Positions 940 to 61,060 of a DNA stretch of 64,000 nucleotides are shown in pieces. The stretch lies in the IMG/VR virus record IMGVR_UViG_3300018877_000002. The stretch is one strand, 5' to 3'. The translations under genes and the position numbers were made by a program. Under the pieces are notes generated by a model. It made no database searches. It worked only from the letters and a program-made list of their open reading frames with translations, and was not told where the DNA came from. Within the stretch, counting starts at the first letter, position 1. Each line of letters starts with the position of its first letter. Origin of the DNA: a virus.

Positions 940-2454
940 ATGTCAAAAATGAAAACAATCTTTGAAATGATGCGTAAGCGCCAAAATAAAATTCTTCGTG
1001 TTGATGCCTATGGGTTTTCTCATAACATGTTGAAGATTGACACGTCTTTCGAGGTGTCGCACATGTACAATCGTCGCAGACCACAAATCCTCTTCTTATT
1101 TTCGCATTATGTCGCTGAGGCGTTTGGTACGCCTATCACGATGGAAGATGTTGATGAGGCGCACGAAATCGCAAAAGAAATGGGATTGGTCTTTCCGCGT
1201 CATATTTTTGAACGTGTTGTAAATGAATTCAAAGGGTATTTTCCTATCAAGGTAGAGGCGTTGCCTGATGGTTTCTATTGCCCTGTAGGTACACCCTTCT
1301 GTCAAATCTCTAATGTAGCTAAGGATTTTGATGATCTAAATGCATTCATTGCATGTCTTGGACACGCAGGTTTTGGTGAACTTGTCTCTTGGGATGAGGC
1401 ATATCTGATGAAAGCTTACTTTCCTGCCGCCGCCGCTACTCACGCATTCGAGATGAGGGAATATCTCGAACAACAATGCAAAGAACATGGGTACGATTGG
1501 GAGCAATTTAAGTGGCGTTTCCATTCTTTTGGCTATCGCGGACATGCTTCTGAGCAAAACGCGGCACTCGCTGGATTGGCTTGGAATATGTCTCTGTTCG
1601 GAACTGATGACATCCACACAAAACAATATTATCGTAAAGCTCCTGTTGGCTCTGTGGCGGCTTCTGCACACAAGGTTGTCCAGCAGTTCGATGATGAACT
1701 ACAGTCCTTCCTGTATGGTGTAGATGCTGTTGCAGAGGCGTTCCATCAGCGCGGTGAAGGTTCTCCCATCTTCCCTTTCCCTATCGACACATACAACGCG
1801 AATAATGTGATTCAAAATTACATTCCTGTTGTTGCGAAGTATGCGGCTGAAAAAGATGTTCGAATTACGCCTCGCCCTGATAGCGGCAATGTCATTCAAC
1901 AAGCAATCGACATCTATCATGTTGCGCAAGAGCATGGTCTGACTAATGTGAGTGTAATCATTGGCGAAGGAATGTCCTTTGAACAAGTCAAAAAGTATGA
2001 TGCTATCTTGCTCGAAAACAACGTTCCTTTGAACTTTGTGCTGTATGGCATTGGGGCAGGATTTTACACTCATCTTACTCGCGACTATTTGGGATGGGCG
2101 ATGAAAACTTCATTCTCTAACAAAGATAGCCGTATGAAGTTTTCTGAAGTTCCTATTAAACAATCAATTCCAGGAATTGTCAAGCTGTTTATTGACGAAG
2201 AGATGAACATGGTCGTTGATTATAGCAACGATGGAAAGTATGCTGGCGCTATCAATGCTGATAATGGATTGTATAATATCCTCTATCATTTTGATGGCTC
2301 TACAGACAAGCCCTTTGTCAAGGTCTTCACCATCGAAGAAAATCATATGCAGATCGAATCTCAGCGTGAAGCACGTGTAGCTGACACCATTGTCATTGCT
2401 CCTGCAATCAAGGAAGAGATTAAGCGCATTCGCGCATTACATGGGCTGTCCTAA
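940..2454 (+). CDS. nadV: nicotinamide phosphoribosyltransferase (NAMPT/NadV)
   Basis: 504 aa. HSFGYRGHAS, RPDSGNV and IIGEGMS are type II phosphoribosyltransferase/NAMPT motifs. The length is typical of NadV. Confidence 0.85.
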   Translation: MSKMKTIFEMMRKRQNKILRVDAYGFSHNMLKIDTSFEVSHMYNRRRPQILFLFSHYVAEAFGTPITMEDVDEAHEIAKEMGLVFPRHIFERVVNEFKGYFPIKVEALPDGFYCPVGTPFCQISNVAKDFDDLNAFIACLGHAGFGELVSWDEAYLMKAYFPAAAATHAFEMREYLEQQCKEHGYDWEQFKWRFHSFGYRGHASEQNAALAGLAWNMSLFGTDDIHTKQYYRKAPVGSVAASAHKVVQQFDDELQSFLYGVDAVAEAFHQRGEGSPIFPFPIDTYNANNVIQNYIPVVAKYAAEKDVRITPRPDSGNVIQQAIDIYHVAQEHGLTNVSVIIGEGMSFEQVKKYDAILLENNVPLNFVLYGIGAGFYTHLTRDYLGWAMKTSFSNKDSRMKFSEVPIKQSIPGIVKLFIDEEMNMVVDYSNDGKYAGAINADNGLYNILYHFDGSTDKPFVKVFTIEENHMQIESQREARVADTIVIAPAIKEEIKRIRALHGLS

Positions 2455-2556
2455 TATACCCATTTATGTTTAAACTCACTCCTGAACTTTTAAAAAGGCT
2501 CAGGAGTGGGGCAAATGCAAAGATCACCTATAGGATTTTGCCAAGGAGGGAAGGTA

Positions 2557-3180
2557 ATGGAAAAACAATTTAAAGCTGGCTTCATGGTTGGACGCTTCCA
2601 GCATATCCATAAAGGGCATCAGGAAATCATTGAGCGCGGCATCAATTCGTGCGAAAAGTTTGTGGTATTTGTAGGCTCCTCTCAGGAGAGTGAAACACGA
2701 CAAAACCCTTACAGTGCCGCTGAGCGCATTAAGCTTATCAAGAAGATTTATGGCGACCTTGTTGAAGTTATCCCATTGCCTGACATCACGACCCCTGATG
2801 ACATCAGCGAAGCATGGGGTAAATACGTAATGGAACAGGCGACAATGGCTCTTGGTGAACATCCTGACTACATGGTCACTGGTAGCGGTGACAGTCAAAG
2901 CCTATGGTTTACTGAAGATCAGTTGACCTTCCAAAAAGGCAGAGATATGGCAAGAATGTATTTTGACATCGTACCGCGAAGCAACACGCCCATCAGCGCA
3001 ACTGAAATGCGCCATTATCTGCTGACAGATAACTTCCAATCGTGGAAGCAGTTTGCAGACATTCGTATCCATTGCAAATTTGAGTGGCTTCGCCTGTTGC
3101 TTCTTATAGTCGAGTATCACAATTTGAGAAGAAAGCTTATCGTCAAAGACGAAAGTGAACTTGATGATGCTAATTTCTAA
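2557..3180 (+). CDS. nicotinamide-nucleotide adenylyltransferase (NMNAT, NadM/NadR-type)
   Basis: GRFQHIHKGH matches the (H/T)xGH nucleotidyltransferase motif and ISATEMR matches the ISxTxxR motif. Start moved to the ATG at 2557, behind AAGGAGGG. No Nudix box seen. Confidence 0.8.
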   Translation: MEKQFKAGFMVGRFQHIHKGHQEIIERGINSCEKFVVFVGSSQESETRQNPYSAAERIKLIKKIYGDLVEVIPLPDITTPDDISEAWGKYVMEQATMALGEHPDYMVTGSGDSQSLWFTEDQLTFQKGRDMARMYFDIVPRSNTPISATEMRHYLLTDNFQSWKQFADIRIHCKFEWLRLLLLIVEYHNLRRKLIVKDESELDDANF

Positions 3181-3204: not shown

Positions 3205-4122
3205 ATGGAACAAAAAGCATATATGGACATCGTTCGCCTTGGACACAAAACCACGCAAGGGATTCTGAACGATGGCGACCACATCGTGGTTCAAGAAAAG
3301 CTGGATGGCGCAAATGCATCCTTTTGTCTGAACCCTGCGAATGGCGACCTTGCGGTATTCTCTCGCCGCACAAAACTTGATGAGAGCAACACTCTTGGAG
3401 GCTTTTATGGATGGGTAATGGACAATATCGCTGGCAAAGTCCTTCGCCCTAACACGATCTACTTTGGCGAATGGCTGAATCCCCACAAGGTCAAATACCC
3501 TGAGAAGACATTCTACCTGTTTGACCTGTACGATGTAAGCACTCATCGTTACCTTCCCTTCGAAGAAGTCAGGAATGAGGCTCAGAGACTGCATCTGAAT
3601 TTGATTCCTGTTTTCTACGAGGGAGTATACCAAGGTTATGCTCATCTGGAGCAGTTCGTCGGCAAGACACTGATTGGCGGCAAGCTTGGCGAAGTGGAGC
3701 AGGGTGAAGGAATCGTTGTCAAAAATGTAACTTTCATCAACCAATTTGGCAGACAGATGTTTGTCAAAATGGTCACTGAGGCTTTTGCTGAGGTGCAAAA
3801 ACAAAAGTTGCCAAAAGACCCTAATAAACCAAAGAGCAAAGAACGTTTATTCGTAGACACTTACGTTACCAAGGCACGTGTTGAGAAGTTCCTGCACAAA
3901 CTTGTTGATGAGCAGGTATTGGATGCTCAATGGGGTATTGAAGATATGGGTGTCGTTCTCAAAGAGCTAAACCATCGTATTTATGATGATCTTATAAAAG
4001 AAGAAGCCGACTATCTGCCGAGTGTATACGACACCAGAGAGCTTCGCAAAAGCCTTAGCACAGTTATGCCAAATTTTGTCAAAGAAATTATCAAGGAGAG
4101 ACAAAAAGATGAAAATTGTTGA
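3205..4122 (+). CDS. ATP-dependent RNA ligase family protein
   Basis: Covalent nucleotidyltransferase motifs: I VQEKLDGAN, III YFGEW, IIIa FYLFDLY, IV EGIVVKN, V FVKMV. The KLDGxN form is typical of RNA ligases. Confidence 0.7.
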   Translation: MEQKAYMDIVRLGHKTTQGILNDGDHIVVQEKLDGANASFCLNPANGDLAVFSRRTKLDESNTLGGFYGWVMDNIAGKVLRPNTIYFGEWLNPHKVKYPEKTFYLFDLYDVSTHRYLPFEEVRNEAQRLHLNLIPVFYEGVYQGYAHLEQFVGKTLIGGKLGEVEQGEGIVVKNVTFINQFGRQMFVKMVTEAFAEVQKQKLPKDPNKPKSKERLFVDTYVTKARVEKFLHKLVDEQVLDAQWGIEDMGVVLKELNHRIYDDLIKEEADYLPSVYDTRELRKSLSTVMPNFVKEIIKERQKDENC

Positions 4123-4435: not shown

Positions 4436-4864
4436 ATGAAAGAAATAATACAAGATTTGTTCTCTGTTGATGATTCTTATTTTTTAGCTCATTGTATTTC
4501 AGCAGATGCCCGCATGGGTGCGGGGATTGCAGTTGAATTTGTTAAACGTTTCCCTCAAATTACACGTCTACGTAATGATTGGCAGACCTATAATGCTGTG
4601 GGCACATGTCGAAAAATAGGAAGAGTATTTAATCTTATCACTAAATATAGAGCTTGGGATAAACCAACCTATGGAACTCTTACTCGCTCCTTGGAGGATA
4701 TGAAACTGAAAGCGATTGAGAAGGGTGTTGCGAAAATTGCGATGCCACGAATTGGCTGTGGTCTAGATGGTTTACAATGGCACATAGTGAGAAATGTTAT
4801 TGAAGATGTTTTTGACGACACTGAAATTGAAATACTTATTTGCAAACCAGAACAAGGGAGATGA
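4436..4864 (+). CDS. macro domain protein (ADP-ribose binding/hydrolase fold)
   Basis: FLAHCISADARMGAGIAVEF and IAMPRIGCGLDGLQW match Poa1p-like macro domains. Confidence 0.8.
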   Translation: MKEIIQDLFSVDDSYFLAHCISADARMGAGIAVEFVKRFPQITRLRNDWQTYNAVGTCRKIGRVFNLITKYRAWDKPTYGTLTRSLEDMKLKAIEKGVAKIAMPRIGCGLDGLQWHIVRNVIEDVFDDTEIEILICKPEQGR

Positions 4865-17196: not shown

Positions 17197-17466
17197 ATGG
17201 CACTTAAACCATCAGATATTATTCAAAAATTAAATAAGGAATATGAGGATATGGCAAATACCATTGAACGCTATATTGACCAAGAGTTAGAGAAACGTTA
17301 CATTGGTGGCTCAATTCATATCAGCATGAGTGCATTTCCTGACATTCCACCAAAGGTGCAAGAGAAGTTGGAAAAACTTTATCTGGACAATGAATGGAAG
17401 GTTGCTGAGTTTAAATATAGTTTCCAATATAACGAAACATACTGCTATTTCCATTTGTCTAGTTGA
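17197..17466 (+). CDS. hypothetical protein
   Basis: ATG behind AAAGGAGTG. Confidence 0.5.
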   Translation: MALKPSDIIQKLNKEYEDMANTIERYIDQELEKRYIGGSIHISMSAFPDIPPKVQEKLEKLYLDNEWKVAEFKYSFQYNETYCYFHLSS

Positions 17467-17491
17467 CAGATGCTAGACTCCGAGGTATAAT
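17463..17491 (+). promoter_or_regulatory. consensus sigma-A promoter
   Basis: TTGACA, 17 nt, TATAAT. Confidence 0.65.
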
Positions 17492-17782: not shown

Positions 17783-17971
17783 ATGGCAAAGAGACTGCGA
17801 AGCATCCAATACCTGTACGATCAAATGAAGATAGAAGTGGCTCAGGAGATGGGTATTCAATTGGGCGCTAACACCTCTTCTCGTTTGAATGGAGTAGTTG
17901 GAGGAGAAGTCACTAAGCGCATGGTGGCAATCGCTGAGGCAGGGTTAATGGATGTCGCAAGAAGCTTATAG
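17783..17971 (+). CDS. ssp: alpha/beta-type small acid-soluble spore protein (SASP)
   Basis: [34 protein letters not shown] matches the two conserved alpha/beta SASP blocks (K.E.A.E.G..L and NG.VGGE.TKR.V). ATG at 17783 behind GAAGGGAG. Confidence 0.8.
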
Positions 17972-18086: not shown

Positions 18087-18395
18087 TTATTTTATACTTG
18101 GCAATTCAGGAAGATCATCCACTTGATGAGCCTCATCAATCATTGGATCATCTAGGGGCTGAGAAAATTTCATTTCTGGCAAAGCTGGTAAATTAGGTTC
18201 TGCTGGCATTTGTGGTATATTTGAACCACCTCCGCTAAATGTACTCCATACACCTCCACCAATAAGAATGAAAGTGATGATGTTTACAATATTTCCATAC
18301 ATAGTAGGATCGACTTCTACATACCTAGAAATAATTTGGTAAATCAAGCTAGCTACAGCCGCTAAGAAGATTGGGTTTTTCAATCTCTCTAACAT
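18087..18395 (-). CDS. holin (phage_holin_1-like)
   Basis: N-terminus LERLKNPIFLAAVASLIYQII plus a second TM segment. Lies immediately downstream of the endolysin. Confidence 0.6.
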   Translation of the reverse strand: MLERLKNPIFLAAVASLIYQIISRYVEVDPTMYGNIVNIITFILIGGGVWSTFSGGGSNIPQMPAEPNLPALPEMKFSQPLDDPMIDEAHQVDDLPELPSIK

Positions 18396-18397
18396 TA

Positions 18398-19858
18398 TTA
18401 TACGCCTCCTTTTAGTTTATTTGCCATATTGATAATTAACTGAGCAACCCATTTTCCCTCTGGAGTCTGACCTTCTCTGGCATAAGTCATCCAATAATCA
18501 GGGCTTGCAATTACTTGATTTTCTTGCAACACTTTAAGAGCAATAGCAATCTCATCAATTTGAAATTTCAAAAGGTCATTATAAATTTTTAGGATAAGAT
18601 CAGAATATCTAGAATTCATAGCCCAACGATTATTTAAATCCTCCCAATAGGGTGCTATGCCACGTTGAACATATTTAAATCTTGGATCAATAATCAATTC
18701 GTTAAATGGTAGCGGCTGTGCATTAGCATAAGCAAACAAATGCTGGATATGAGCTGTTATACCTTTTTCAATTGTCTCAAATGAAACCCCTATCTCACCT
18801 TTAGATGTCACTCCTAATCCGCAATAGTTGTGCTGTTCAGGCTTTACGGCAGTTCCGTCAGAAAATTTAAACCAACCAGTTTCCACAATTGCCTGACAAA
18901 AGGCGATATCTGAACGAATACCATATTTAGCACCTATAAGAGCATAAGCCTCAGCAATTTTGTAATCAAAAGAAGGATTTTTCTGTCTTGCAAAACAAGC
19001 CATTTGATAAGCACTTGCAATCGAATTTCCCATAATAGGAGTTTTTACGATAAGATGACTTGCGGGGTTTTCGTCTTGGTGTAGATGGAATGTATACTTG
19101 TACCCCTCTGGAGTTATCATGATAACATTTGCATTTCCATTATTATAGATATCCCACCCTGCTTTAACAGCGTTATCTTTTACGCTGTAGGCTCCTACCT
19201 GTTTATTAGCCACCAAGAGCCTGTATAACGCCTTTTGCGACTTTTGTGATACAGGCTGAGGGGTAGAGTTAGGGGTAAGGTTAAAACCAGCACAAATTGC
19301 CCTGTAGTGATACATAGCGAGCTTGTCCCACTCATTTGCCTCATCAAATTTTGCAATGTCTTCTGCATTATCAATGAATGCACTTTCAGTAATAACAGCA
19401 GGGCAAATAGTCTCTCTGATTACTGCAAAAGTTTTATTGGTTGACTTAACACCACGATTCACAAGCCCCTCTTCTCGTGCTAAAATATCGACAAGGGATT
19501 GTGCTACTTTGCGACCAATGCCCTGACCATTATAATCAAGAGCTTCTACTCCGTGAGCAGAGCCATTGAATGCATTAAAATGAATAGAAACCATCAAATC
19601 TGCACCAAAAGCATTCGCAATACTCGCTCTCGCTTTCAGCTCTCCTAGTGTATCACCTTCAAGATGCTTTGGAGCATAATCACCTTCTCTTGTCATAACA
19701 ACAGAGAAGCGACCATCTGCAAGTAAGAGCTTCTTTAGACGAATTGCGACAGCTAGAGTAAGGTCTTTTTCTTTAAGACCTGTTATTTTGTTGACTGCTC
19801 CAGCATCATAGCCACCATGACCTGCGTCAATACAAATTTTAATTGTCATTTTTTCCAT
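18398..19858 (-). CDS. endolysin: N-acetylmuramoyl-L-alanine amidase (Amidase_3) plus glucosaminidase domain
   Basis: IKICIDAGHGGYDAGAV...SIHFNA for Amidase_3. C-terminal FCQAIVETGWF...HNYCGLGV for the glucosaminidase. Confidence 0.85.
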   Translation of the reverse strand: MEKMTIKICIDAGHGGYDAGAVNKITGLKEKDLTLAVAIRLKKLLLADGRFSVVMTREGDYAPKHLEGDTLGELKARASIANAFGADLMVSIHFNAFNGSAHGVEALDYNGQGIGRKVAQSLVDILAREEGLVNRGVKSTNKTFAVIRETICPAVITESAFIDNAEDIAKFDEANEWDKLAMYHYRAICAGFNLTPNSTPQPVSQKSQKALYRLLVANKQVGAYSVKDNAVKAGWDIYNNGNANVIMITPEGYKYTFHLHQDENPASHLIVKTPIMGNSIASAYQMACFARQKNPSFDYKIAEAYALIGAKYGIRSDIAFCQAIVETGWFKFSDGTAVKPEQHNYCGLGVTSKGEIGVSFETIEKGITAHIQHLFAYANAQPLPFNELIIDPRFKYVQRGIAPYWEDLNNRWAMNSRYSDLILKIYNDLLKFQIDEIAIALKVLQENQVIASPDYWMTYAREGQTPEGKWVAQLIINMANKLKGGV

Positions 19859-20258
19859 CCTCCTTTACTCCGTATTTTCTTTCTAATTCGTTAATACGAA
19901 TAATCAACCCTTTGTTTTCTTCCTCTAGTGCTTGATATTTAGCTTTCCACTCTGCGTCTAGGGCATAATATTTCTTTTCCCATTCTTCCAGCTTCTGTTC
20001 TAAAGCTACGTTTCGTTTCTGCTCTAACAGAAACGATTCCTTTAGAATTCTCAACTCTTCTCGCAATTCATCATTCATTTCATTTTGCCTTTCCATGAAT
20101 TTGTCTTGCTCTTTAGCTAGTTGAGCTTGACGCTGAACAATAAGCTGATTATCAATTCTTTTTTTTGCTACAAGATAACCATAAAATCCAGTAATTAATG
20201 AAGTTACACCAACAACCACAGGCTCAGTGACTAGACTCGCCCAATCCATTAAAGTCAC
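19839..20258 (-). CDS. BhlA/UviB-like membrane-anchored coiled-coil protein (holin-like)
   Basis: One N-terminal TM segment followed by a long charged heptad region. Directly upstream of the endolysin. Confidence 0.45.
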   Translation of the reverse strand: MTLMDWASLVTEPVVVGVTSLITGFYGYLVAKKRIDNQLIVQRQAQLAKEQDKFMERQNEMNDELREELRILKESFLLEQKRNVALEQKLEEWEKKYYALDAEWKAKYQALEEENKGLIIRINELERKYGVKEDGKNDN

Positions 20259-20311
20259 CTCTTTTCATTTTAGTAGTATTTTATCTAACCACTCACTCAT
20301 TTATAGTTAGA

Positions 20312-20343
20312 TTATAAGAAAAGGGCAAGTTTTCTTGCCCTTT
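20312..20343 (-). terminator. rho-independent terminator
   Basis: AAGGGCAAG / CTTGCCCTT stem. On the minus strand it is followed by TTTTCTT. Confidence 0.65.
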
Positions 20344-20719
20344 AATTAACAGTGATAGGGGTATTCTCAATACCACGAACAAGTTTGACCTGAGTTGAAC
20401 TTTCGTACTTTATCCTAGATAAGAAAAGGTCTATTGCTACCTGTGGGTCAACTGTCTCACCACATGTGTAGCAATCTACAAGCATATCTCCACTTTCTAT
20501 ATCGTATCTACATGAGAAGTGACTTTCAGAAAGCAAAATAGAGAAAATAGTGATATATCTTCCATCTCTATTTTCATATGTATTAACTTCGCGACTGAGA
20601 ATAGTAGCACCAGCCTTCCGAACAGCTTGCACAGCATAGAGCATTAACCCCATGCTAGACTTTACACCTTTGATATCAACGATTACTTGCCGTCCATATG
20701 TTGAGTATTCTTGTTTCAA
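20342..20719 (-). CDS. speD: SpeD/AdoMetDC-fold pyruvoyl-dependent decarboxylase homolog
   Basis: GRQVIVDIKG, LLSESHFS (ES self-cleavage site) and VDCYTCGETVDP align by eye with Bacillus SpeD (GRHVISELWG, IISESHLT, IDVYTCGDLDP). Confidence 0.75.
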   Translation of the reverse strand: MKQEYSTYGRQVIVDIKGVKSSMGLMLYAVQAVRKAGATILSREVNTYENRDGRYITIFSILLSESHFSCRYDIESGDMLVDCYTCGETVDPQVAIDLFLSRIKYESSTQVKLVRGIENTPITVN

Positions 20720-20765
20720 TCTTTGTCATCTCCTTTGTTTATACACTTTGCACTTGGACGGCTAT

Positions 20766-20794
20766 ATTATAACATATTTTTACTGAAATGTCAA
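20766..20794 (-). promoter_or_regulatory. perfect consensus sigma-A promoter for the SpeD-like gene
   Basis: Minus strand reads TTGACA, 17 nt, TATAAT. Confidence 0.7.
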
Positions 20795-20804
20795 GTAGAT
20801 TATT

Positions 20805-20842
20805 AAAATAAAAAATGAGCCGCCTACTAAAAAGCGGCTCAT
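20805..20842 (-). terminator. rho-independent terminator
   Basis: ATGAGCCGC / GCGGCTCAT stem, then a T run on the minus strand. Confidence 0.65.
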
Positions 20843-20850
20843 TTAAAATT

Positions 20851-21270
20851 TTAGATTACATAAGACATAACTTCATCATATTCTTGCTGACTTAGCCAAC
20901 CATTAGCAAATGCTGTATTGATTTGACTTTCTGTAAGAAGTCTTGCTATAGACTGCTCGATAGTAGAATAAAAACCAGCTCTCACTCCGTCAAATCCATC
21001 ACGCTTGGTCAATCTATTTCTGCCATAAAGTGCGACCATGTAAGCCATAGTATCAGCATATTCATTATTTAAAAGCCAAGTCTTGGTTAATGCTCCTTCA
21101 ATTACACTTGCGTAAAAATTTAACGCCGCGTATTGTTTTACTGGCTCATGATATTCAAGTGGTATCCCTGAATATCCGTCACGTGCAGTAAATCGCTGTG
21201 TACCTTGACAATAAATTGTATTTGCGTAATTAGAAGTCATAAAAGAATAAATATCTGGTGTAATAGCCAA
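20851..21270 (-). CDS. hypothetical protein (tail-fibre accessory position)
   Basis: Open frame with an internal duplication (T/K)RDG(Y/F).G(I/V). Confidence 0.45.
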   Translation of the reverse strand: MAITPDIYSFMTSNYANTIYCQGTQRFTARDGYSGIPLEYHEPVKQYAALNFYASVIEGALTKTWLLNNEYADTMAYMVALYGRNRLTKRDGFDGVRAGFYSTIEQSIARLLTESQINTAFANGWLSQQEYDEVMSYVI

Positions 21271-21283
21271 TTTGATTCCCCCT

Positions 21284-21730
21284 TTAAATAATTCCTTTTT
21301 GTGCTAAGTATATAATCAATCCATCAACCGTATCTGATAGTGATTTGTTTGATGATTCTAAACTTTCGTTTTGTCCTGAAACCTCTGCAAACTTAGTATC
21401 TAACTCAACTTTTTCAGATTCTAATATTGAAACTCTTTCAATGAGTTGTTGTACTAATTGTTCTGCTGTTAGTGGAATATCCTCTACTTCATACCACATG
21501 TTAACATTTGTCTGCACAACGTTATAATCCACAGGGTAAGAGATTGTTGATGGGTCTACGAAAAGACCTGTTACACGTTTACCTTCCTCGAAGTCAGGCT
21601 CTGACGGAAGCGAATCAACGATTACTCCACCTTGCATTTCTTCCAGTGTTAGCATTTCAGGATAATTGTGGTAAAATGTCACTTTGAATTTTCCAGTTTC
21701 TACTTCACTCCAACGAATAAATACTGCCAT
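21284..21730 (-). CDS. hypothetical protein (tail-fibre accessory position)
   Basis: Open frame with a C-terminal coiled coil. Confidence 0.45.
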   Translation of the reverse strand: MAVFIRWSEVETGKFKVTFYHNYPEMLTLEEMQGGVIVDSLPSEPDFEEGKRVTGLFVDPSTISYPVDYNVVQTNVNMWYEVEDIPLTAEQLVQQLIERVSILESEKVELDTKFAEVSGQNESLESSNKSLSDTVDGLIIYLAQKGII

Positions 21731-21761: not shown

Positions 21762-23240
21762 CTAGCCAGAAATTTGTATTTTCTCAAACACTCTTTTTGT
21801 AAAATATGAAGAAGCATAATAGCATCCTTCAACACTGTCGTAATAAAGGGCATTTGGAAAATCGCTTCCACCCCCACCTAATACGTCGCCAAATAGACCA
21901 GGGGTATGCCAGATTAAATTTCCCGCACTATTCAACTTGTATAGCGCACCAGTTCCATTATCAGACGCAGAAAAAACAACATCATTATTTGAAAAGACTT
22001 GCACAGGCCCAAACCAGTTTGCTCCAGTTGACGGACTATATTGCCATAACTTATTGAAATTTGCATCATATTTACCGCCTTGGAAATACAACGCGCCATC
22101 ATTGTAGATGCCAATAGACTTATTGCGTGAGTTGATAATTTTATTAGTCCATACGTCTGCCCCATTAGAGGTAAGGACTTTTTTAATGTAATTAGTGGAG
22201 CCGTTGGGCGTATTGTATTCAATGTATGCGTAAGTTCCTGTAGCTTTTTCAACAGCTATATACGCTCCATCATACCCACTAGGGATAGTCGTCGTGTTAG
22301 CCCAAACAATAGACAAGCTTGATGCATCTATTTTATAAGTCGAATCTAGTCCGACAACGTATATGTAGCCCCCTGCAATATCCATATCAGAGGGAGCAGA
22401 TAGTATAGTTTCTTTGACTTTCGTTCCTGTTGTAGCGTCCCATTTTTGAATATTGCTTGATCCACTGTTGATGATTATGATATAAATATCATTTCCAATA
22501 ATTATCATTTTTGAATTTGTAGTTATAGGATAGAACGAAAATGATGCTATCAACGCTCCTTTTTTAGTATATTTTCGTAAATAGCCGTCGAGCCAACACA
22601 TCCAAACGTAGCCAGAAGCGTCAACGCCTACTGCTGTGACATTATAGCTTCCTCGTGTTGGAAGCTGATCGAATGACACCATAGGCGGGCGATCCAATCC
22701 AAGGTTTTGATAAGTGATTGTGTCGCCTATCTTGTACTTGCCTACCTGAATCGAATTAACTCCATCTGCAAGCTGTTGAAATGTATAGGGAGCAGTTCCA
22801 GATACCGTGCCCCCTTTTCCAGTAATGGCGGTAGCTACTTGTGCCTTCCCACTACTTACAGAGCTGAAAAGCGTATCGTAATCACGTTGGTCAAGAATTT
22901 TTCTCCAAGGACTCCACGTTCCGCTAGCTTTTTGTCGTTCATACTTAGCTCCACCAGCGAAATCCCACATTGTTTGAGTAACCCAATTAGTCCCATTCGC
23001 ACTATGATTATGGACTACGCAATAACGCCAAGTATGATTCGTTTCACTAGGACATGCATTTGTCATATTTTGGCCATCATAAAATCCATTGGTTATAACA
23101 TTGTTCCAATCTCCAACGCTTGTAACGTTTTGTGTTCCTTTGATTGCATAATAAGAAGGTAACTGACCTCCTAGCTTGTCTGCATTAGCGGCATCAATTT
23201 CGATCCAAGTCCCATTTTTTAAAATTTTTCCCTTTGCCAT
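21762..23240 (-). CDS. tail fibre / receptor-binding protein with repeat-rich C-terminal half
   Basis: Start at the ATG at 23240 behind GAAAAGGAGGG. N-terminus MAKGKILKNGTWIEIDAANADKLGG is typical of fibre proteins. The C-terminus has repeated beta-strand-rich units. Confidence 0.55.
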   Translation of the reverse strand: MAKGKILKNGTWIEIDAANADKLGGQLPSYYAIKGTQNVTSVGDWNNVITNGFYDGQNMTNACPSETNHTWRYCVVHNHSANGTNWVTQTMWDFAGGAKYERQKASGTWSPWRKILDQRDYDTLFSSVSSGKAQVATAITGKGGTVSGTAPYTFQQLADGVNSIQVGKYKIGDTITYQNLGLDRPPMVSFDQLPTRGSYNVTAVGVDASGYVWMCWLDGYLRKYTKKGALIASFSFYPITTNSKMIIIGNDIYIIIINSGSSNIQKWDATTGTKVKETILSAPSDMDIAGGYIYVVGLDSTYKIDASSLSIVWANTTTIPSGYDGAYIAVEKATGTYAYIEYNTPNGSTNYIKKVLTSNGADVWTNKIINSRNKSIGIYNDGALYFQGGKYDANFNKLWQYSPSTGANWFGPVQVFSNNDVVFSASDNGTGALYKLNSAGNLIWHTPGLFGDVLGGGGSDFPNALYYDSVEGCYYASSYFTKRVFEKIQISG

Positions 23241-23256
23241 ACTTTTTCCCTCCTTT

Positions 23257-25227
23257 TCAATTGGTATCAAACCAAATATCATTCTCTTTTGGAGAAGATG
23301 GTGGAACAGCTCCTACTGTGATCTTTATTCCATTTATAAATTCGGAGTTAAGATTTGGAATCATTGTTTTTGATGTTATGACAAATGGGGCAGTACCATC
23401 AGCAACTGTAGAGGTAATTGTTCCAATAAATGTGGCATTATTAGAGCTATCAGATAATATATTATTTTTTGCATAAATCTTGCCATCGCCAACTACTGAT
23501 AATTGTAAATTTCCATTTTCAATTTCATTCTGAATATTGAATGTAGTACTGCCGTTACTAGTAAATCCAATGACTCCACTTCTGGTCATAGGTGAAGAAG
23601 CTCTAGCGAATAGACCAATATACACATGATCGTTTTCTCCATTAGCTTTTAAGTTTAAAGCATCAGCACCATTTAGAACACTTAAATTCTTTTCAATTGT
23701 TATGTTACCAGAAGAGCTAATGTGCATCCTTGTAGCTGGAGCTATTTCATCTGTTTCATCTGTTATCTGCAAGCTACCTGAGTTATTAGAATAAATACCA
23801 TATTTCCTACCAGTTGTAGCGGTTGTATTATTAAGAATAACCCCTGAAGCCCATCCAGAGCTTTCTCCTTCTAAGATTAAACCCGCTGTATTGGTTGCTT
23901 GTGTTACTTTAATCTGTCCAGTTAACACAAACCCACCATTGCTGTTTAGCTTTAGCAACTGATTTGCGTCAGTTCCAGCATTTACATCAATCGTTGGATT
24001 TTGAGCGGTTCCACCAACAATCACGTTGGGACTTGCCGCACTAACTCCTTGTACAGTGCCCATTCCATCAGCACCCTTGGATGCTACGAGTTGCCATAGA
24101 GGGCTAGTGTCAGGTTGATTCCCTAAGTTATCATCTGCTAAAGATTGATAGGTAGAACCATTGTAAAGAACAGTGTTCCTATTTGTGTAAGACACTGTGG
24201 AATCCCAAGTCCCTCTACTTACAAAGTTTGTTGTAATGAGATTAACTTCCGCTACAGCATTATTAGCCGCTGTCGTTGCTGTGATAGCATCATTGGTAGC
24301 TACAATGGCGTTATCTCTGGCTGTATTAGCCGCTATTGTTGCGGCATTAGCATTGGAAGTAGCTAAATCAGCCGCCTCTCTTGAGGCATTAGCCGCCGTT
24401 GTTGCTGTAATAGCGTTGTTAGTGGCTGTAACAGCTTCATTGGTCGCTGTTATAGCCTGATTAGTGGCTGTAACAGCCGCCTCGATTGTAGAGCTTGCGT
24501 CAAAAGATAATCTCCAATACAAGGTGTCCTCTAAAGGTGTTCCAATAGATGCATCTGCAATGCAGATGTATACCTTGTTATTGTAATGAACACTATTACC
24601 CTTTTTATAGGCTATTGACTCTGACCATTCCCCTTTAAATTCTAAATTAAGAATCGCATTATTGGTTGCTATAGTTGCTGTAATAGCATTTTCCGTTGCA
24701 ATAATAGCATTATCCTTGGCGACATTGGCAGAGTCAGCCGCATTATTGGCAGTTGTAGCCGCTGTATTTGCATTGGCTATTGCTATATTAGCTTGCTCAA
24801 TAGTTTGAGTTAACTGATTATTAGCTTCAATTGCCGTCTGCCCATTATCAATAATTTCTTGGATAGTAGTTACAATGTTATTTCCATCTTTTGTGTAAAT
24901 TCTTTCTGCTGGATAAAGTAAAATGCCTCTACCTTTATATGATTTAACAACAACTGTTTTACCTTCTTGCGAAGGGTCAAAGGTAATAATTCCATTTTGA
25001 TAATTGACAATAAATTTACTTGGGGAAACTGATTCTTTAGAAGGATCAAATATCTCTATGTAATCTTGAATAAAAACTCTTTCAAATTCATCTGGAACTT
25101 CTTGAAGCAGTATAGTTCCATTTAATATTTTATATGATTCATTTACCCTATCAGAAAAGGGATCATCCTCTGTTCCTGCCCTCCATGCAATAATCAATGG
25201 GTCATTATAAGTGAACACATTTATCAC
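23257..25227 (-). CDS. tail fibre protein with Ala/Thr/Asn coiled-coil repeats
   Basis: Two blocks of NAITAT-type heptads, each followed by a CBM5/12-like W..Y....V.YNG..Y....W.L motif. Confidence 0.65.
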   Translation of the reverse strand: MINVFTYNDPLIIAWRAGTEDDPFSDRVNESYKILNGTILLQEVPDEFERVFIQDYIEIFDPSKESVSPSKFIVNYQNGIITFDPSQEGKTVVVKSYKGRGILLYPAERIYTKDGNNIVTTIQEIIDNGQTAIEANNQLTQTIEQANIAIANANTAATTANNAADSANVAKDNAIIATENAITATIATNNAILNLEFKGEWSESIAYKKGNSVHYNNKVYICIADASIGTPLEDTLYWRLSFDASSTIEAAVTATNQAITATNEAVTATNNAITATTAANASREAADLATSNANAATIAANTARDNAIVATNDAITATTAANNAVAEVNLITTNFVSRGTWDSTVSYTNRNTVLYNGSTYQSLADDNLGNQPDTSPLWQLVASKGADGMGTVQGVSAASPNVIVGGTAQNPTIDVNAGTDANQLLKLNSNGGFVLTGQIKVTQATNTAGLILEGESSGWASGVILNNTTATTGRKYGIYSNNSGSLQITDETDEIAPATRMHISSSGNITIEKNLSVLNGADALNLKANGENDHVYIGLFARASSPMTRSGVIGFTSNGSTTFNIQNEIENGNLQLSVVGDGKIYAKNNILSDSSNNATFIGTITSTVADGTAPFVITSKTMIPNLNSEFINGIKITVGAVPPSSPKENDIWFDTN

Positions 25228-25274
25228 CCCTCAATTTTTATTATACCACATTGTAATTAAAATGTCAATACCAA

Positions 25275-36774: not shown

Positions 36775-37749
36775 CTATTCTTCGTAAATTCCGTCAAAAT
36801 CCTCAACATCTTCAGAGACGATATAGATTTCTGTTGTAGTAGAACTTTCATGCCCTAAATGCTTTTGGATTTTCTTGATGTCTACCCCAGCCTCTTTCAT
36901 GTGTGTAGCACGAGTTGACCTGAACATATGAGGATGAACATGTCGTCCAATGATCTCGCCAAAAATCTTGCACCAGTTATTGAAAGAGCTTGGATGCAAT
37001 GGTTTTGGCTCTTTTGCTTTTGTATTAATGAACACATATGGGCAGCTATCTTCTCCTCTGACTTCTAGCCATTTTCTAATAGCGTCCATAACACGTTTAT
37101 CAATTGTAAACTTTCTAACCTTTCCTTCTCTACCTTTGCCTTTACATCTGATTTGATGTGTCATCCAAAGATTCTTTTCATTGCCTTCTTTATCCTTCAG
37201 CTTAGGATAGTTGACAACCTCTTTCAACAATTGCCCTGTCTCGCCACGTCTGCAACCAGTTACATAAACAAACTCTAGGTATGCTACCTTCTGCCAATCT
37301 TTTCTTTTTTTCATAGTCTCAATAAGTAGTTCATATTCGTCAACTGTCAATGGCTTTTTTTCTTTTTTGTTTGATTTTGCAGGATTTGGAATCTTCTTGC
37401 TGTAAATATTTCTAAATGTTTCGCATCCATCTTCATCAGAATAATAAACTTCAACATATCCACACAAGCTAGAAACGGCAGAACGCTTGAATCTAACCGC
37501 GCTTGGAGATAAACCAGCATCAATCAAAAAGTTTTGATACTGCAAAGCGTGTCTTGGTTTCAGTTTGTATAATTGTTTATTATCACATTCATCATAAACC
37601 CATTTAAAGAATTGTCTTAGTGCACTTTTATATTGCATAAGCGTCTGTGGAGACAAATGGCTTTGTTTTAGAAACTCTTCTACTAATTTTCTATTCCATT
37701 TGTCTACTAGCTCCCACTGCTCATCTGTAACCTCTGGTAATTTTGCCAT
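36775..37749 (-). CDS. tyrosine recombinase (phage integrase family), catalytic residues intact
   Basis: VTGCRRGE (Arg I), HPHMFRSTRATH (HxxR), LGHESSTTTEIYI (His and Tyr). Confidence 0.8.
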   Translation of the reverse strand: MAKLPEVTDEQWELVDKWNRKLVEEFLKQSHLSPQTLMQYKSALRQFFKWVYDECDNKQLYKLKPRHALQYQNFLIDAGLSPSAVRFKRSAVSSLCGYVEVYYSDEDGCETFRNIYSKKIPNPAKSNKKEKKPLTVDEYELLIETMKKRKDWQKVAYLEFVYVTGCRRGETGQLLKEVVNYPKLKDKEGNEKNLWMTHQIRCKGKGREGKVRKFTIDKRVMDAIRKWLEVRGEDSCPYVFINTKAKEPKPLHPSSFNNWCKIFGEIIGRHVHPHMFRSTRATHMKEAGVDIKKIQKHLGHESSTTTEIYIVSEDVEDFDGIYEE

Positions 37750-51233: not shown

Positions 51234-51309
51234 TGGTGCTGGAGACAAGACTTGAACTCGCAACCTTTCGCTTACAAGGCGACTGCACTGCCAATTGTGC
51301 TACTCCAGC
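51234..51309 (-). tRNA. tRNA-Thr (UGU)
   Basis: Hand fold: acceptor GCTGGAG/CTCCAGC, A73, encoded CCA. Anticodon loop CTTGTAA. Confidence 0.75.
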
Positions 51310-51312
51310 ATA

Positions 51313-51401
51313 TGGTATGGGCAGTAGGATTCGAACCTACGAGGGCTTGCGCCACTTGCGTCCAAAGCAAGACCGCTACCAAGCTACGGAACTATACCCA
51401 T
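51313..51401 (-). tRNA. atypical 89-nt tRNA with a long variable arm; anticodon loop TTTGGAC (UGG)
   Basis: T arm GTAGG-TTCGAAT-CCTAC. Acceptor ATGGGTA/TGCCCAT. Variable arm GGC-GCAA-GCC. Five nt lie between the acceptor and D stem instead of 2. Confidence 0.55.
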
Positions 51402-51402
51402 A

Positions 51403-51478
51403 TGGTTGCGCGAGGTTGGAATCGAACCAACTATTTCCTGATAATGAGTCAGGCGACTTACCATTTGTCCTCTCCGCA
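51403..51478 (-). tRNA. tRNA-Met/Ile2-type (CAU) with a bulged acceptor stem
   Basis: Anticodon arm CCTGA-CTCATTA-TCAGG. T arm GTTGG-TTCGATT-CCAAC. Acceptor TGCGGAG pairs with CTC(G)CGCA only if one G is bulged. Confidence 0.6.
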
Positions 51479-51673
51479 ATAATTAACTAGGCACAGCAAT
51501 TTAAAAGTGTGAAGCAAACAACATTCATCAATGTAAGTTAATAATTTTATCCTTTAGATAATTGTAGGTTGCTGTATGTGCCTAAATTCTAGACGCGCCA
51601 ATCATTTTAATATTAATCACCAATTATTTGAATAGCGTAAGATTTATGATTTGCTGTAAGCGTCTAAAAAGGT

Positions 51674-51751
51674 TGGTGGGCGATAGGAGAGTCGAACTCC
51701 TAAAACTCGCGGTCTAAACGCGATACGTATGCCAAATTCCGTCAACCGCCC
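51674..51751 (-). tRNA. class I (short variable arm) tRNA with anticodon UAG
   Basis: Acceptor GGGCGGT/ATCGCCC, A73, CCA. Anticodon arm TCGCG-TTTAGAC-CGCGA. Variable region is only GTTTT. Confidence 0.6.
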
Positions 51752-52269
51752 TTGTTATTTTTTCCTGCATAGGTATCAGTTTGACTATGACAATTAGGAC
51801 ATAAAAACCTAAGATTCTCAAGTCTATTATCATTATTGATTCCATTTGCATGATCTAACTGTAAAGACAATGGCTTTCCATTCCATTCTCCAGTATTACC
51901 GCAATCGTTGCATTTGTAATCCATAACTCCCTCTGATACGAGTCTCTTTTTAAGAGTAGCAATATTAACATACGATGAATTTTCTATGAGAATTTCCTCT
52001 AGAGTGTATCTGATATTATTAGATACAGATTTTTTCTTATTTGCATTAAAATGGGAAATGTCAATTCCATCTTCTTCAATTCGCTTCTTGAAACAATCTC
52101 TCGTATGTTTAGCTCTAGGATTGGTATAGCCAATATTTCTGATAGCATCTGTTATAGAGAAGCTACTTTTCACTATCTCTCTTAATTCATCAGTTGAAAT
52201 TGAGAGTATAATTGATTTATTTGCTATATTATCACATCCTTCGGATTTTGGGGTGATGCAGGGAATCAA
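51742..52269 (-). CDS. HNH homing endonuclease nested in the tRNA array
   Basis: CNDCGNTGEW...LQLDHANGINNDNRLENLRFLCPNCH is an HNH motif. The start is uncertain because the TTG at 52269 lies inside the T loop of tRNA-His. Confidence 0.75.
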   Translation of the reverse strand: MIPCITPKSEGCDNIANKSIILSISTDELREIVKSSFSITDAIRNIGYTNPRAKHTRDCFKKRIEEDGIDISHFNANKKKSVSNNIRYTLEEILIENSSYVNIATLKKRLVSEGVMDYKCNDCGNTGEWNGKPLSLQLDHANGINNDNRLENLRFLCPNCHSQTDTYAGKNNKGG

Positions 52270-52322
52270 ACCCTAGTCTTCTGATTCACAGTCAGACGTG
52301 TTATCACTACACCATCATCACC
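52251..52322 (-). tRNA. tRNA-His (GUG), CCA not encoded
   Basis: Acceptor GGTGATG/CATCACC, C73. Anticodon arm TCTGA-CTGTGAA-TCAGA. No encoded G-1. Confidence 0.75.
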
Positions 52323-52327
52323 ATACT

Positions 52328-52402
52328 TGGCAACAGGTCAGAGAATCGAACTCTGTCTACAGGGGTCAAAGTCCTGTGTGCTTGCCTTTACACTAACCTG
52401 CA
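52328..52402 (-). tRNA. tRNA-Gln (UUG)
   Basis: U1 start, G73, CCA. Anticodon loop CTTTGAC. T arm CAGAG-TTCGATT-CTCTG. Confidence 0.7.
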
Positions 52403-52513
52403 ATATGGGAGTTTTGCTACAATGTAGCCTTTTGAATGACTTAAACTCCAAAAGCCATTGTGTCATTTGTTTTTTTAAAAGGTTCTCTTAACGACAGCTA
52501 AATTCTCCTTTTT

Positions 52514-52590
52514 TGGTGACGTGTAAGGGGTTCGAACCCTTGAATAGTAGATAGAAAGTCTACTGGCTTAGACCACTTGCCGAACACGCC
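52514..52590 (-). tRNA. tRNA-Glu (UUC)
   Basis: Acceptor GGCGTGT/ACACGTC. Anticodon arm GTAGA-CTTTCTA-TCTAC. Confidence 0.7.
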
Positions 52591-52593
52591 ATA

Positions 52594-52669
52594 TGGCTAC
52601 AGGAGCGGGATTCGAACCCACGACCACGTGATTAACAGTCACGCGCTCTACCTGCTGAGCTACCCTGTA
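52594..52669 (-). tRNA. tRNA-Asn (GUU)
   Basis: Canonical cloverleaf. D arm GCTC-AGCAGGTA-GAGC. Anticodon loop CTGTTAA. G73, CCA. Confidence 0.85.
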
Positions 52670-52733
52670 ATGTTGAGGCTATTTACACTTCTATCTAGCT
52701 AATGCGCACTCGCTGTATGATGTAAATAGCTTT

Positions 52734-52808
52734 TGGTGGTTCCTAATGGATTCGAACCATTGACCGCACGATTATCAGTCGTGTACTCTACCTCTGAGTT
52801 AAAGAACC
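52734..52808 (-). tRNA. tRNA-Ile (GAU)
   Basis: Canonical cloverleaf. Anticodon arm CACGA-CTGATAA-TCGTG. Confidence 0.85.
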
Positions 52809-52810
52809 AT

Positions 52811-52884
52811 TGGCGGCTTATACGAGGCTCGAACTCGTTACTCTCGCGTGACAGGCGAGTATGTTACCCATATACCAATAAGCC
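52811..52884 (-). tRNA. tRNA-Asp (GUC)
   Basis: Acceptor GGCTTAT/ATAAGCC, G73. Anticodon arm CTCGC-CTGTCAC-GCGAG. Confidence 0.85.
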
Positions 52885-52908
52885 ATTATTTGTTAACCTC
52901 TTGACTAT

Positions 52909-52937
52909 ATATTACCATATCTCGGTCTAATTGTCAA
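52909..52937 (-). promoter_or_regulatory. internal sigma-A promoter of the tRNA array (P2)
   Basis: Minus strand reads TTGACA, 17 nt, TAATAT. Confidence 0.6.
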
Positions 52938-52965
52938 CATGTTAACTAAAATTTTTCGAGATTTG

Positions 52966-53040
52966 TGGTGGCTCCCATTGGTAACGATCCAATCTCCTTC
53001 GCTTTTCAGGCGAATGCTAATCCATCTCAGCTAGAGAGCC
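52966..53040 (-). tRNA. tRNA-Phe (GAA) with a non-canonical T loop
   Basis: Anticodon arm TTCGC-CTGAAAA-GCGAA. The T loop is ATCGTTA instead of TTCGAAT. Confidence 0.75.
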
Positions 53041-53044
53041 ATAA

Positions 53045-53117
53045 ACCACATTGATGGAATCGAACCATCAGCTAGAGCTACCATCGACTTTTGCTCTGTT
53101 GCCTGAGCCAGATGTGG
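53045..53117 (-). pseudogene. tRNA-like element / probable pseudo-tRNA
   Basis: Good acceptor (CCACATC/AATGTGG), D arm (GCTC-AGGCAACA-GAGC) and T arm (GATGG-TTCGATT-CCATC). No anticodon stem can be paired. No CCA. Confidence 0.45.
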
Positions 53118-53121
53118 TTAT

Positions 53122-53197
53122 TGGTGGAGCGTAGCGGACTCGAACCGCTCACCTTTGCAGTGCAAATGCAACGTTCTACCAGATGAACTAACGCCCC
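53122..53197 (-). tRNA. tRNA-Ala (UGC)
   Basis: Canonical cloverleaf with the G3:U70 pair. Anticodon arm TTGCA-TTTGCAC-TGCAA. Confidence 0.85.
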
Positions 53198-53275
53198 ATT
53201 TATCAGTGTCAGGTGGGAGGATGCTAAACACCATGTCCCTCACTTCGAGTATTTGACACTGAGTATGGTTGAGCA

Positions 53276-53350
53276 TGGTTGAGCATGAGGGAATTGAACC
53301 CCCGCCTCCAACTTGTAAGGATGGCGTACTCCCATTATACAGAATGCTCA
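53276..53350 (-). tRNA. tRNA-Val (UAC)
   Basis: Acceptor TGAGCAT/ATGCTCA. Anticodon loop CTTACAA. One T:T mismatch in the anticodon stem. Confidence 0.65.
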
Positions 53351-53355
53351 ATAAT

Positions 53356-53440
53356 TGGTGGGTGAGGAGGGATTCGAACCCCCTAAGCCTAAGCAATGGA
53401 TTTACAGTCCACCGTAACTCGCCATCGTTACCGCTCACCC
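53356..53440 (-). tRNA. tRNA-Tyr (GUA), class II
   Basis: Acceptor GGGTGAG/CTCACCC. Anticodon arm GTGGA-CTGTAAA-TCCAT. Long variable arm. Confidence 0.85.
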
Positions 53441-60827: not shown

Positions 60828-61051
60828 GAAATCATCTGTATACAATAGGGTACAGTTATCAATTAAGTAGCGATGATCCAAACCTTATCCGAAGTGGATT
60901 TGATTTTGTTCCATGTTATGATCTAAAAGAGTTTAACCATTATTTTTGGGTTATCATTGAAGAAGGGAGTGAAATTATTTATATTGACATGCTCATTGAC
61001 AACAAAGTTGTTGTAATTTATGATAAAGAAAAGGCTAGCCTAATAGGTTAG
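60824..61051 (+). CDS. hypothetical protein
   Basis: ATGA-coupled to the upstream gene. Confidence 0.45.
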   Translation: MRNHLYTIGYSYQLSSDDPNLIRSGFDFVPCYDLKEFNHYFWVIIEEGSEIIYIDMLIDNKVVVIYDKEKASLIG

Positions 61052-61060
61052 CCTTTAATT
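61031..61060. terminator. bidirectional terminator at convergent gene ends
   Basis: AAGGCTAGCC / GGTTAGCCTT stem flanked by A4 and T-rich tracts. Overlaps both stop codons. Confidence 0.6.

Follow-up and report, generated by a model that had tools for sequence, protein, structure and literature searches.

A phage SpeD-like protein that keeps the pyruvoyl side of the decarboxylase active site and has lost the His68 side

In a 64,000-nucleotide stretch of viral DNA (IMG/VR virus record IMGVR_UViG_3300018877_000002; this whole stretch is referred to below as the window), we analyzed a gene at positions 20342 to 20719 on the minus strand, which encodes a 125-amino-acid protein with the predicted fold of class-1b S-adenosylmethionine decarboxylases (AdoMetDC, also called SpeD). 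This SpeD-like protein keeps the residues that form the pyruvoyl side of the active site, and has lost a set of residues that we infer to form the side contributed by the other chain of the homodimer. Because of this asymmetric loss, in which the pyruvoyl side is kept and the His68 side is lost, we tentatively read the protein as an incomplete "half-site" subunit that may need or perturb a complete SpeD chain, most plausibly the one of the host.

Results

Family membership and fold

An initial annotation of this DNA, made from the sequence alone, had recognized a SpeD/AdoMetDC fold with a Glu-Ser self-processing site and a catalytic Cys, and these three features were all recovered by profile, structure and fold comparisons (PF02675, PHROG 3125, 1tlu/1vr7, AlphaFold2/Foldseek). 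The SpeD-like protein scored 37.7 bits against Pfam PF02675 (AdoMet_dc), i.e., above the gathering cut-off of 25, and matched PHROG 3125 ("S-adenosylmethionine decarboxylase") at 1e-10; the top match by sequence among solved structures was the AdoMetDC of Thermotoga maritima (TM0655; 1tlu/1vr7). An AlphaFold2 model (pLDDT 87, pTM 0.80) was matched by Foldseek to 1vr7, 1tlu, 1tmi and 2iii with TM scores of 0.75-0.80 and root-mean-square deviations of 2.0-2.5 A. On the basis of these profile matches and of the predicted structure, the protein is a member of the class-1b AdoMetDC/SpeD-fold family. Conversely, it scored 50.0 bits against the NCBIfam equivalog model TIGR03330 (SAM_DCase_Bsu), for which the cut-off is 75.65 and canonical relatives score between 112 and 142 (e.g., 141.9 for P0003 and 112.1 for P0016).

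Residues kept and lost in the active site

Residues S63, H68 and C83 of T. maritima AdoMetDC are indispensable both to self-processing and to catalysis; conservation of all three is expected in AdoMetDC as well as in its arginine- and ornithine-decarboxylase derivatives, and every bona fide AdoMetDC has the Pro of the H-T-W-P-E segment (PMC10407285). The SpeD-like protein keeps an LLSESH motif, in which Ser66 of Glu65-Ser66-His67 aligns to T. maritima S63, and a YTCGE motif, in which Cys86 of Thr85-Cys86-Gly87 aligns to C83. In T. maritima numbering, E62, S63, H64, T82, C83 and G84 are thus kept in the phage protein, as they are in every homologue of our residue table, and Asp79, Pro89 and Arg-Gly112/113 are also present.

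The segment that follows the cleavage site reads FSCRYDIE in the phage protein and xSIHTYPE in its relatives, in an alignment without gaps (SESHFSCRYDIE compared to SESHxSIHTYPE). The replacement of this segment had been pointed out in the initial annotation, and the comparison with characterized enzymes indicates that it matters, as it removes His68 along with the Pro that bona fide AdoMetDCs always have (PMC10407285): Arg71 occupies the position of T. maritima His68, and Ile74 that of Pro71. His is found at position 68 in 104 of the 108 motif-bearing sequences, and the SpeD-like phage protein is the only one with Arg there. Gln11 stands in place of His7, and the F49-x-P51-x-G53/Ser55 loop is degraded, with Y, N, I and I as the aligned residues, in a register that is uncertain owing to an insertion of 3-4 residues. 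As compared to 104 aligned family members, Phe49 is replaced by Tyr and Pro51 by Asn, and Gly53 and Ser/Thr55 also depart from the family. Positions F49, P51, G53, S/T55, H68 and P71, which are 63-95% conserved in the family, are therefore all changed, and only E72 is kept.

Compared to class-1b SpeD/SpeH proteins such as T. maritima TM0655 and those of the Paenibacillaceae, the phage protein has the same fold, a similar size, the Glu-Ser and Thr-Cys-Gly motifs and 44-47% identity to the Paenibacillaceae proteins. It differs from them in its replaced F-x-P-x-G/Ser55 loop, which is 3-4 residues longer, in a segment from the first strand to the first helix that is 5 residues shorter in the alignment, and in being encoded by a stand-alone unit rather than in a polyamine operon.

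The kept and lost residues sort by the chain from which they would be drawn. In human AdoMetDC, Ser229 and His243 lie in the opposite half from Ser68 and Cys82. In the eukaryotic enzyme the processing His and the ribose-binding Glu are located in the half of the sandwich opposite to that of the pyruvoyl Ser and the Cys, while in the prokaryotic enzyme two identical chains form the sandwich (PMC1282579). The assignment of Ser55 and His68 to the opposite chain is drawn from this report (PMC1282579) and from the human enzyme. As the lost residues would lie on the side given by the partner chain, a homodimer of the phage protein would have no processing base at either of its two sites.

Class assignment and the possibility of an ordinary AdoMetDC

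Judged by its sequence, the SpeD-like protein is outside the AdoMetDC definition, as it departs from it at His68, at the invariant Pro and in its TIGR03330 score, and an ordinary role as SAM decarboxylase is unlikely. That the protein is nevertheless an orthodox AdoMetDC, which converts S-adenosylmethionine (SAM) to decarboxylated SAM and boosts spermidine for replication or DNA packaging, as the SpeD proteins of cyanophages and Thermus phages do, seems to us improbable. The Pfam and PHROG matches to SAM decarboxylase and the retention of E62, S63, C83 and E72 are consistent with such a role, which would also have ample precedent. Approximately 150 deposited phage genomes carry speD, and several phage SpeDs restore spermidine synthesis (PMC9992855). 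Most of these genomes are from cyanophages; among Bacillus phages only vB_BcoS-136 is represented, with a 357-amino-acid SpeH (L009, 6767-7840) that has a canonical SpeD domain with N- and C-terminal extensions and is encoded in the early-gene region. However, the protein studied here lacks both His68 and the Pro invariant in bona fide enzymes and misses the TIGR03330 cut-off by 25 bits, and neither speE nor a second SpeD-fold open reading frame (ORF) was found in the 64-kb window, which represents approx. 40% of the genome. The initial annotation had also suggested that a phage version could consume SAM, with relevance to SAM-dependent restriction or BREX-type defences; none of the results yielded evidence on this suggestion.

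Related phage and cellular proteins

The same pattern of kept and lost residues was observed in two other phage proteins, in both of which Tyr occupies position 68 and the F-x-P-x-G loop is degraded. One of them, P0015 (L031, 5802-6176), is encoded between a tail-fibre gene and a holin gene; the other, P0081 (L035, 8001-8369), is encoded directly after an Amidase_2 endolysin on a 96.6-kb SPbeta-like contig. Identity among the three His68-less phage proteins is 30-37%. Phage SpeDs that keep His68 are located in early or metabolic modules, beside PhoH, replication genes or guanylate kinase, in what is a small sample.

A cellular protein of 215 amino acids, P0093 (L042, 3650-4297), contains two SpeD domains whose losses complement each other. 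F..PQGVTG and HTWPE are kept in domain 1, which has neither the Glu-Ser nor the Cys, and domain 2 keeps SESH and FTCGE and has HYDRQ as its His-side segment, so that P0093, by its sequence, looks like a natural split-function dimer. We counted this division of labor between the two P0093 domains, together with the recurrence of the pattern in P0015 and P0081, as support for the half-site reading. Fusion proteins are also known to carry degraded SpeD domains without self-cleavage, e.g., the C-terminal one in fusions from Victivallis vadensis.

It is tempting to interpret these variants as enzymes with new substrates, since phage SpeD homologues with arginine decarboxylase (ADC; SpeDA) or ornithine decarboxylase (ODC; SpeDC) activity have been documented (PMC9992855). 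The SpeD-like protein would then be an autonomous, neofunctionalized pyruvoyl decarboxylase for arginine, ornithine or another amino acid, which self-processes in an alternative manner and feeds or diverts host polyamine synthesis. We consider this a possibility worth keeping in view, albeit a doubtful one. According to the literature, ADCs differ from bona fide AdoMetDCs chiefly by the loss of the Pro (PMC10407285), and this AdoMetDC-specific residue is absent from the ADC group and from the phage protein alike. None of the three diverged phage variants has lost the pyruvoyl Ser or the catalytic Cys, which suggests that the chemistry is still under selection. On the other hand, the SpeDA pattern consists of loss of the Pro with retention of S63, H68 and C83, and the phage protein shows the loss of the Pro and the retention of S63 and C83 but has Arg in place of H68; the characterized phage enzymes, by contrast, are described as keeping His68 (PMC10407285). 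The occurrence of Arg once and Tyr twice at this position points to a released constraint rather than to a defined replacement catalyst. As for SpeDC, a single clade with four diagnostic residues, Gln, Thr, Phe and Tyr, has been described (PMC10407285). The nearest relatives of the SpeD-like protein are AdoMetDC-type proteins of the Paenibacillaceae, which, on sequence grounds, argues against SpeDC membership; it comes from a Bacillota AdoMetDC clade and not from the SpeDC clade. Compared to the phage SpeD homologues described so far (PHROG 3125; Li et al., PNAS 2023, JBC 2023), the gene likewise encodes a phage-borne class-1b protein, likewise ranks as an auxiliary metabolic gene and likewise resides in a large genome; the published cases are mostly from marine or freshwater phages.

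A different explanation of the same losses, and in our view a rather unlikely one, is that the protein is not catalytic at all, i.e., that it is an unprocessed pseudoenzyme with a SpeD fold and serves to bind SAM or some other ligand, or that it has an unrelated role late in infection near the lysis genes. Near-invariant positions have been lost together (H7Q, P51N, G53, S/T55, H68R and P71I), the score is below the TIGR03330 equivalog cut-off, and E62 and E72, which contact the adenine and ribose in AdoMetDC, are kept, all of which would fit a binding protein. Non-processing SpeD domains and a dead paralogue, the trypanosome prozyme, are known (PMC5201418), and His68-less variants are found beside lysis genes in three phages. 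A pure binding protein would not, however, be expected to keep Ser63, His64 and Cys83 in three lineages at 30-37% identity, and none of our results points to a ligand or a partner.

The SpeD-like gene and its signals

The coding sequence (20342-20719, minus strand) begins with a TTG codon, which is the start in both the ENA and the JGI gene calls, and the resulting N-terminus (MKQEYSTYGRQ) aligns to that of the homologues (MEYSTYGRH). By inspection of the sequence, an AAAGGAG ribosome-binding site is located 10 nt 5' of the TTG start (20730-20736, minus strand). Approximately 45 nt 5' of the start codon is a sigma-A type promoter, TTGACA-17-TATAAT with an extended -10 (TGnTATAAT), at 20766-20794 on the minus strand, which scored 12 out of 12 and bears out the perfect promoter of the initial annotation. 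Three perfect TTGACA-17-TATAAT sites were observed in the window as compared to 0.05 expected by chance.

Terminators on both sides of the gene had been predicted as well, and folding supports both. The upstream one, an intrinsic terminator at 20813-20844 (minus strand) that ends the tail-fibre operon, has a 13-bp stem, a T-run and an A-run on the opposite side; its fold (-20.2 kcal/mol, z = -6.8) was also picked up by a simple terminator scan. The downstream one is a terminator-like element at 20310-20343 (minus strand), with a hairpin at 20320-20343 that starts from the stop codon and consists of AAAGGGCAAG, a UUUU loop and CUUGCCCUUU; its folding energy is -14.5 kcal/mol (z = -4.7), the U-tract behind it (UUUUCUUAU) is not continuous, and it was not called by the simple terminator scan. 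The two structures were found as inverted repeats I1 (upstream) and I2 (downstream) in a repeat search. Other than these signals, a search for riboswitches or other RNA elements around the SpeD-like cassette returned only sub-threshold Rfam noise, and a search for insertion repeats there found chance repeats only. The succession of terminator, promoter, gene and terminator, placed between tail-fibre and lysis genes, looks like an autonomous sigma-A transcription unit, as far as sequence signals can define one.

Several metagenome samples contributed the 8 contigs that encode an identical SpeD-like protein, and one strain among them has flanks that are 99.0% identical; among the other carrying contigs (99-100% identical) no difference was found inside the gene. 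The codon for Arg71 is AGA, which is at least 2 base changes away from any His codon. Given the 8 contigs with an identical protein and this codon distance, the ORF is not an artefact.

Origin of the gene

By sequence, the SpeD-like protein is most similar (44-47% identity) to SpeDs encoded on the chromosomes of Paenibacillus, Cohnella and Brevibacillus, and one of these Paenibacillaceae-type speD genes adjoins a CN_hydrolase gene, which belongs to a family that includes N-carbamoylputrescine amidohydrolase. Compared to these chromosomal relatives, the SpeD-like protein is 11-17 identity points farther from every outgroup; this greater distance from common outgroups indicates a long branch. 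No protein between 47% and 100% identity was found in 5.8 billion protein clusters, and of 1.84 billion representatives 106 matched at E <= 1e-3, none of them with >40% identity. These comparisons indicate, at the level of sequence, that the gene is a fast-evolving singleton derived from a Paenibacillaceae-type speD.

The GC content of the gene is 0.378, and its GC, GC3 and codon usage resemble those of the neighbouring phage genes; a recent horizontal acquisition was rejected on these grounds, and the capture is therefore old. These data also bear on whether the gene is a decaying passenger without function, left over from the capture of a host speD, which we judge to be a poor prospect. The long branch, the loss of residues on the catalytic side and the singleton status of the protein could all be read as decay. 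Conversely, the ORF is full-length with a confident fold prediction, it is served by a perfect promoter, a ribosome-binding site and terminators, it is identical in strains with flanks 1% apart, its composition and codon usage mark it as a long-term resident of the phage, and the pattern of kept and lost residues recurs in two other phages.

Expression and phage lifestyle

The initial annotation had proposed that the gene is expressed from a repressed prophage. The own promoter and the terminators that would insulate a moron from the late operon are present as sequence matches, and, as in known morons or lysogenic-conversion cassettes, a consensus promoter and terminators on both sides are combined with the usual position of such cargo at the tail/lysis junction. 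Unlike in those cassettes, however, structural genes of this phage are also driven by a promoter of the identical class: another perfect, extended sigma-A promoter is located at 25240-25268 on the minus strand, directly 5' of the YomF-like tail-fibre gene, and has 11 of 17 spacer bases in common with the promoter of the SpeD-like gene. Since an equal promoter fronts the tail-fibre operon, a perfect sigma-A promoter is no mark of lysogenic expression. The third perfect TTGACA-17-TATAAT site (17463-17491, plus strand) is 5' of a 60-amino-acid ORF, which is followed by a SASP gene (approx. 17783-17971, plus strand). Extended, operator-like similarity among the three promoters was considered and rejected, as they have nothing in common beyond the core and the spacer.

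A scan for sigma-A-like sites found none between the terminator of the SpeD-like gene and the lysis cassette, so that transcription of the lysis genes, which have no promoter of their own, would involve either read-through of the terminators or a late promoter of an unrecognized type. Late transcription probably passes both terminators and hence includes the SpeD-like gene, as the arrangement of signals in the sequence suggests. The genes of P0015 and P0081 have no promoter or terminators of their own and are embedded in late/lysis operons, in contrast to a moron arrangement. With contigs that contain phage DNA only, an equal promoter before the tail-fibre operon, lysis genes without promoters and two homologous genes without signals of their own, expression from a repressed prophage is unproven.

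Two tyrosine recombinase (Phage_integrase) genes are present, at 36775-37749 (minus strand) and 59793-60827 (plus strand), and a Replic_Relax gene is found at 61035-61928 (minus strand). These two recombinases and the existence of temperate distant relatives, such as Tsamsa, which is reported to be temperate (PMC3903500), make a temperate lifestyle of the carrier phage possible. The recombinase gene at 36775-37749 is unusually placed, in the tail module just 5' of the tape-measure gene.

The carrier phage and its other genes

The window consists entirely of phage DNA and includes genes for a DNA polymerase III alpha-like protein, RNase H, PhoH and a RecD-like helicase as well as for a terminase, a portal protein, a 2209-amino-acid tape measure and YomG/YomF-like tail proteins. 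The location between tail-fibre and lysis genes that had been assigned to the SpeD-like gene was borne out. It is preceded by the YomF-like tail-fibre gene and three ORFs of no assigned function (20851-21270, 21284-21730 and 21762-23282) and followed by a lysis cassette at 18087-20258 (minus strand), which consists of genes for a hol-like coiled-coil membrane protein, an endolysin with Amidase_3 and Glucosaminidase domains, and a 102-amino-acid ORF.

Seven of the 8 carrying contigs belong to the 50-200 kb class, and lengths of 158,528, 159,239 and 159,240 bp are reported; all contain phage DNA only, and no host flank or prophage junction was seen on them. The window is identical to one of these contigs across the 20 kb compared. 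A tail protein shares approx. 37% identity with its counterparts in large siphoviruses of Bacillus, Brevibacillus and Alicyclobacillus, Tsamsa-like phages among them, and the SASP gene in the window suggests a spore-forming host. Based on gene content and sequence matches, the carrier is an approx. 159-kb SPbeta/Tsamsa-like siphovirus of a spore-forming Bacillota host. No close phage relative was found by megablast against GenBank phages or, for the neighbouring 148-amino-acid gene, in IMG/VR; the portal protein had no relative in the GTDB reference genomes (185,579 genomes), and the endolysin had only partial or low-identity (31-59%) matches in IMG/VR. The comparison for an empty site covered the distant phages Tsamsa and KKP_3916; Tsamsa has no SpeD-like gene at its tail/lysis junction.

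Elsewhere in the window, a NAMPT gene and a gene for an NMNAT-like cytidylyltransferase are located side by side and are followed by an RNA ligase gene and a Macro-domain ORF (a cluster noted at 940-3180, 3205-4122 and 4436-4864, plus strand). Toolkits for NAD+ salvage and repair of the NAMPT/NMNAT type have been linked to the countering of NAD-depleting defences, and this cluster resembles such a toolkit. A group of 14 tRNA genes (51234-53440, minus strand) is broken by an ORF for an HNH endonuclease (51742-52269), and ARAGORN reported one tRNA (53044-53118) with a four-base anticodon and no amino acid assigned.

Discussion

We hypothesize that the SpeD-like protein acts as one part of a divided active site. 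A homodimer of the phage protein would have no base for self-processing, whereas a phage chain paired with a complete SpeD chain could form a hybrid dimer in which one active site is complete and the other crippled. Such a hybrid would re-set host AdoMetDC activity and may thereby shift the balance of spermidine and SAM during infection. We infer the supply of residues in trans, the heterodimer and the metabolic direction from the pattern of losses and from what is reported for other members of the family.

Several points weigh against this reading and keep it tentative. At 44-47% identity to the nearest cellular SpeDs the compatibility of the dimer interface is uncertain. By site count, a hybrid dimer provides one good site per host chain, so that activity would not obviously rise or fall without altered kinetics or regulation. 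The Arg of the window protein, or the Tyr of the other two, might stand in for the missing base, as might some other residue. The alignment of positions 44 to 60, i.e., of the loop with its 3-4 residue insertion, is uncertain, and a partner chain or speE might lie in the approx. 95 kb of the genome beyond the window. Neighbour-joining gave no support for a single lineage of the three His68-less proteins, with bootstrap values of 11% for the trio and 11-29% overall.

The half-site reading has a wider form, about which we are more doubtful still. SpeD-derived half-site proteins may exist as a set in large Bacillota siphoviruses, encoded beside the lysis genes, and may pair with the SpeD of the host, either being activated in trans or crippling it, and so exert control over the spermidine/SAM balance. 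They would then correspond, in a virus, to the trypanosome prozyme or to the halves of eukaryotic AdoMetDC. The trypanosomatid prozyme (PMC5201418), the degraded domain of V. vadensis and the C-terminal half of eukaryotic AdoMetDC all have in common with the SpeD-like protein an AdoMetDC fold with partial loss of the active site, from which an inability to complete an active site alone would be expected. These dead paralogues have, however, lost the side of the pyruvoyl Ser and Cys or all catalytic residues, whereas the loss in the phage protein has the opposite polarity; the phage protein is also free-standing and viral.

Phage speD is an accepted class of auxiliary metabolic gene, and the recent surprise has been that many of its members have switched substrates. 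What is new here is a form that lacks both His68 and the Pro and that is insulated as a unit of its own at the tail/lysis junction. The Ser/His/Cys triad for self-processing has been assumed to be kept in all characterized cases, and it is broken in the window protein, P0015 and P0081. Should the protein of the window prove to be a weak ordinary decarboxylase, it would represent a routine auxiliary gene. If it is true that these proteins are active, a class-1b pyruvoyl enzyme does not need the canonical His to mature. If they are inactive on their own, they would provide a simple natural model for the origin of the eukaryotic two-half enzyme and of prozyme-type regulation, and possibly a new viral route to taking over a host enzyme.

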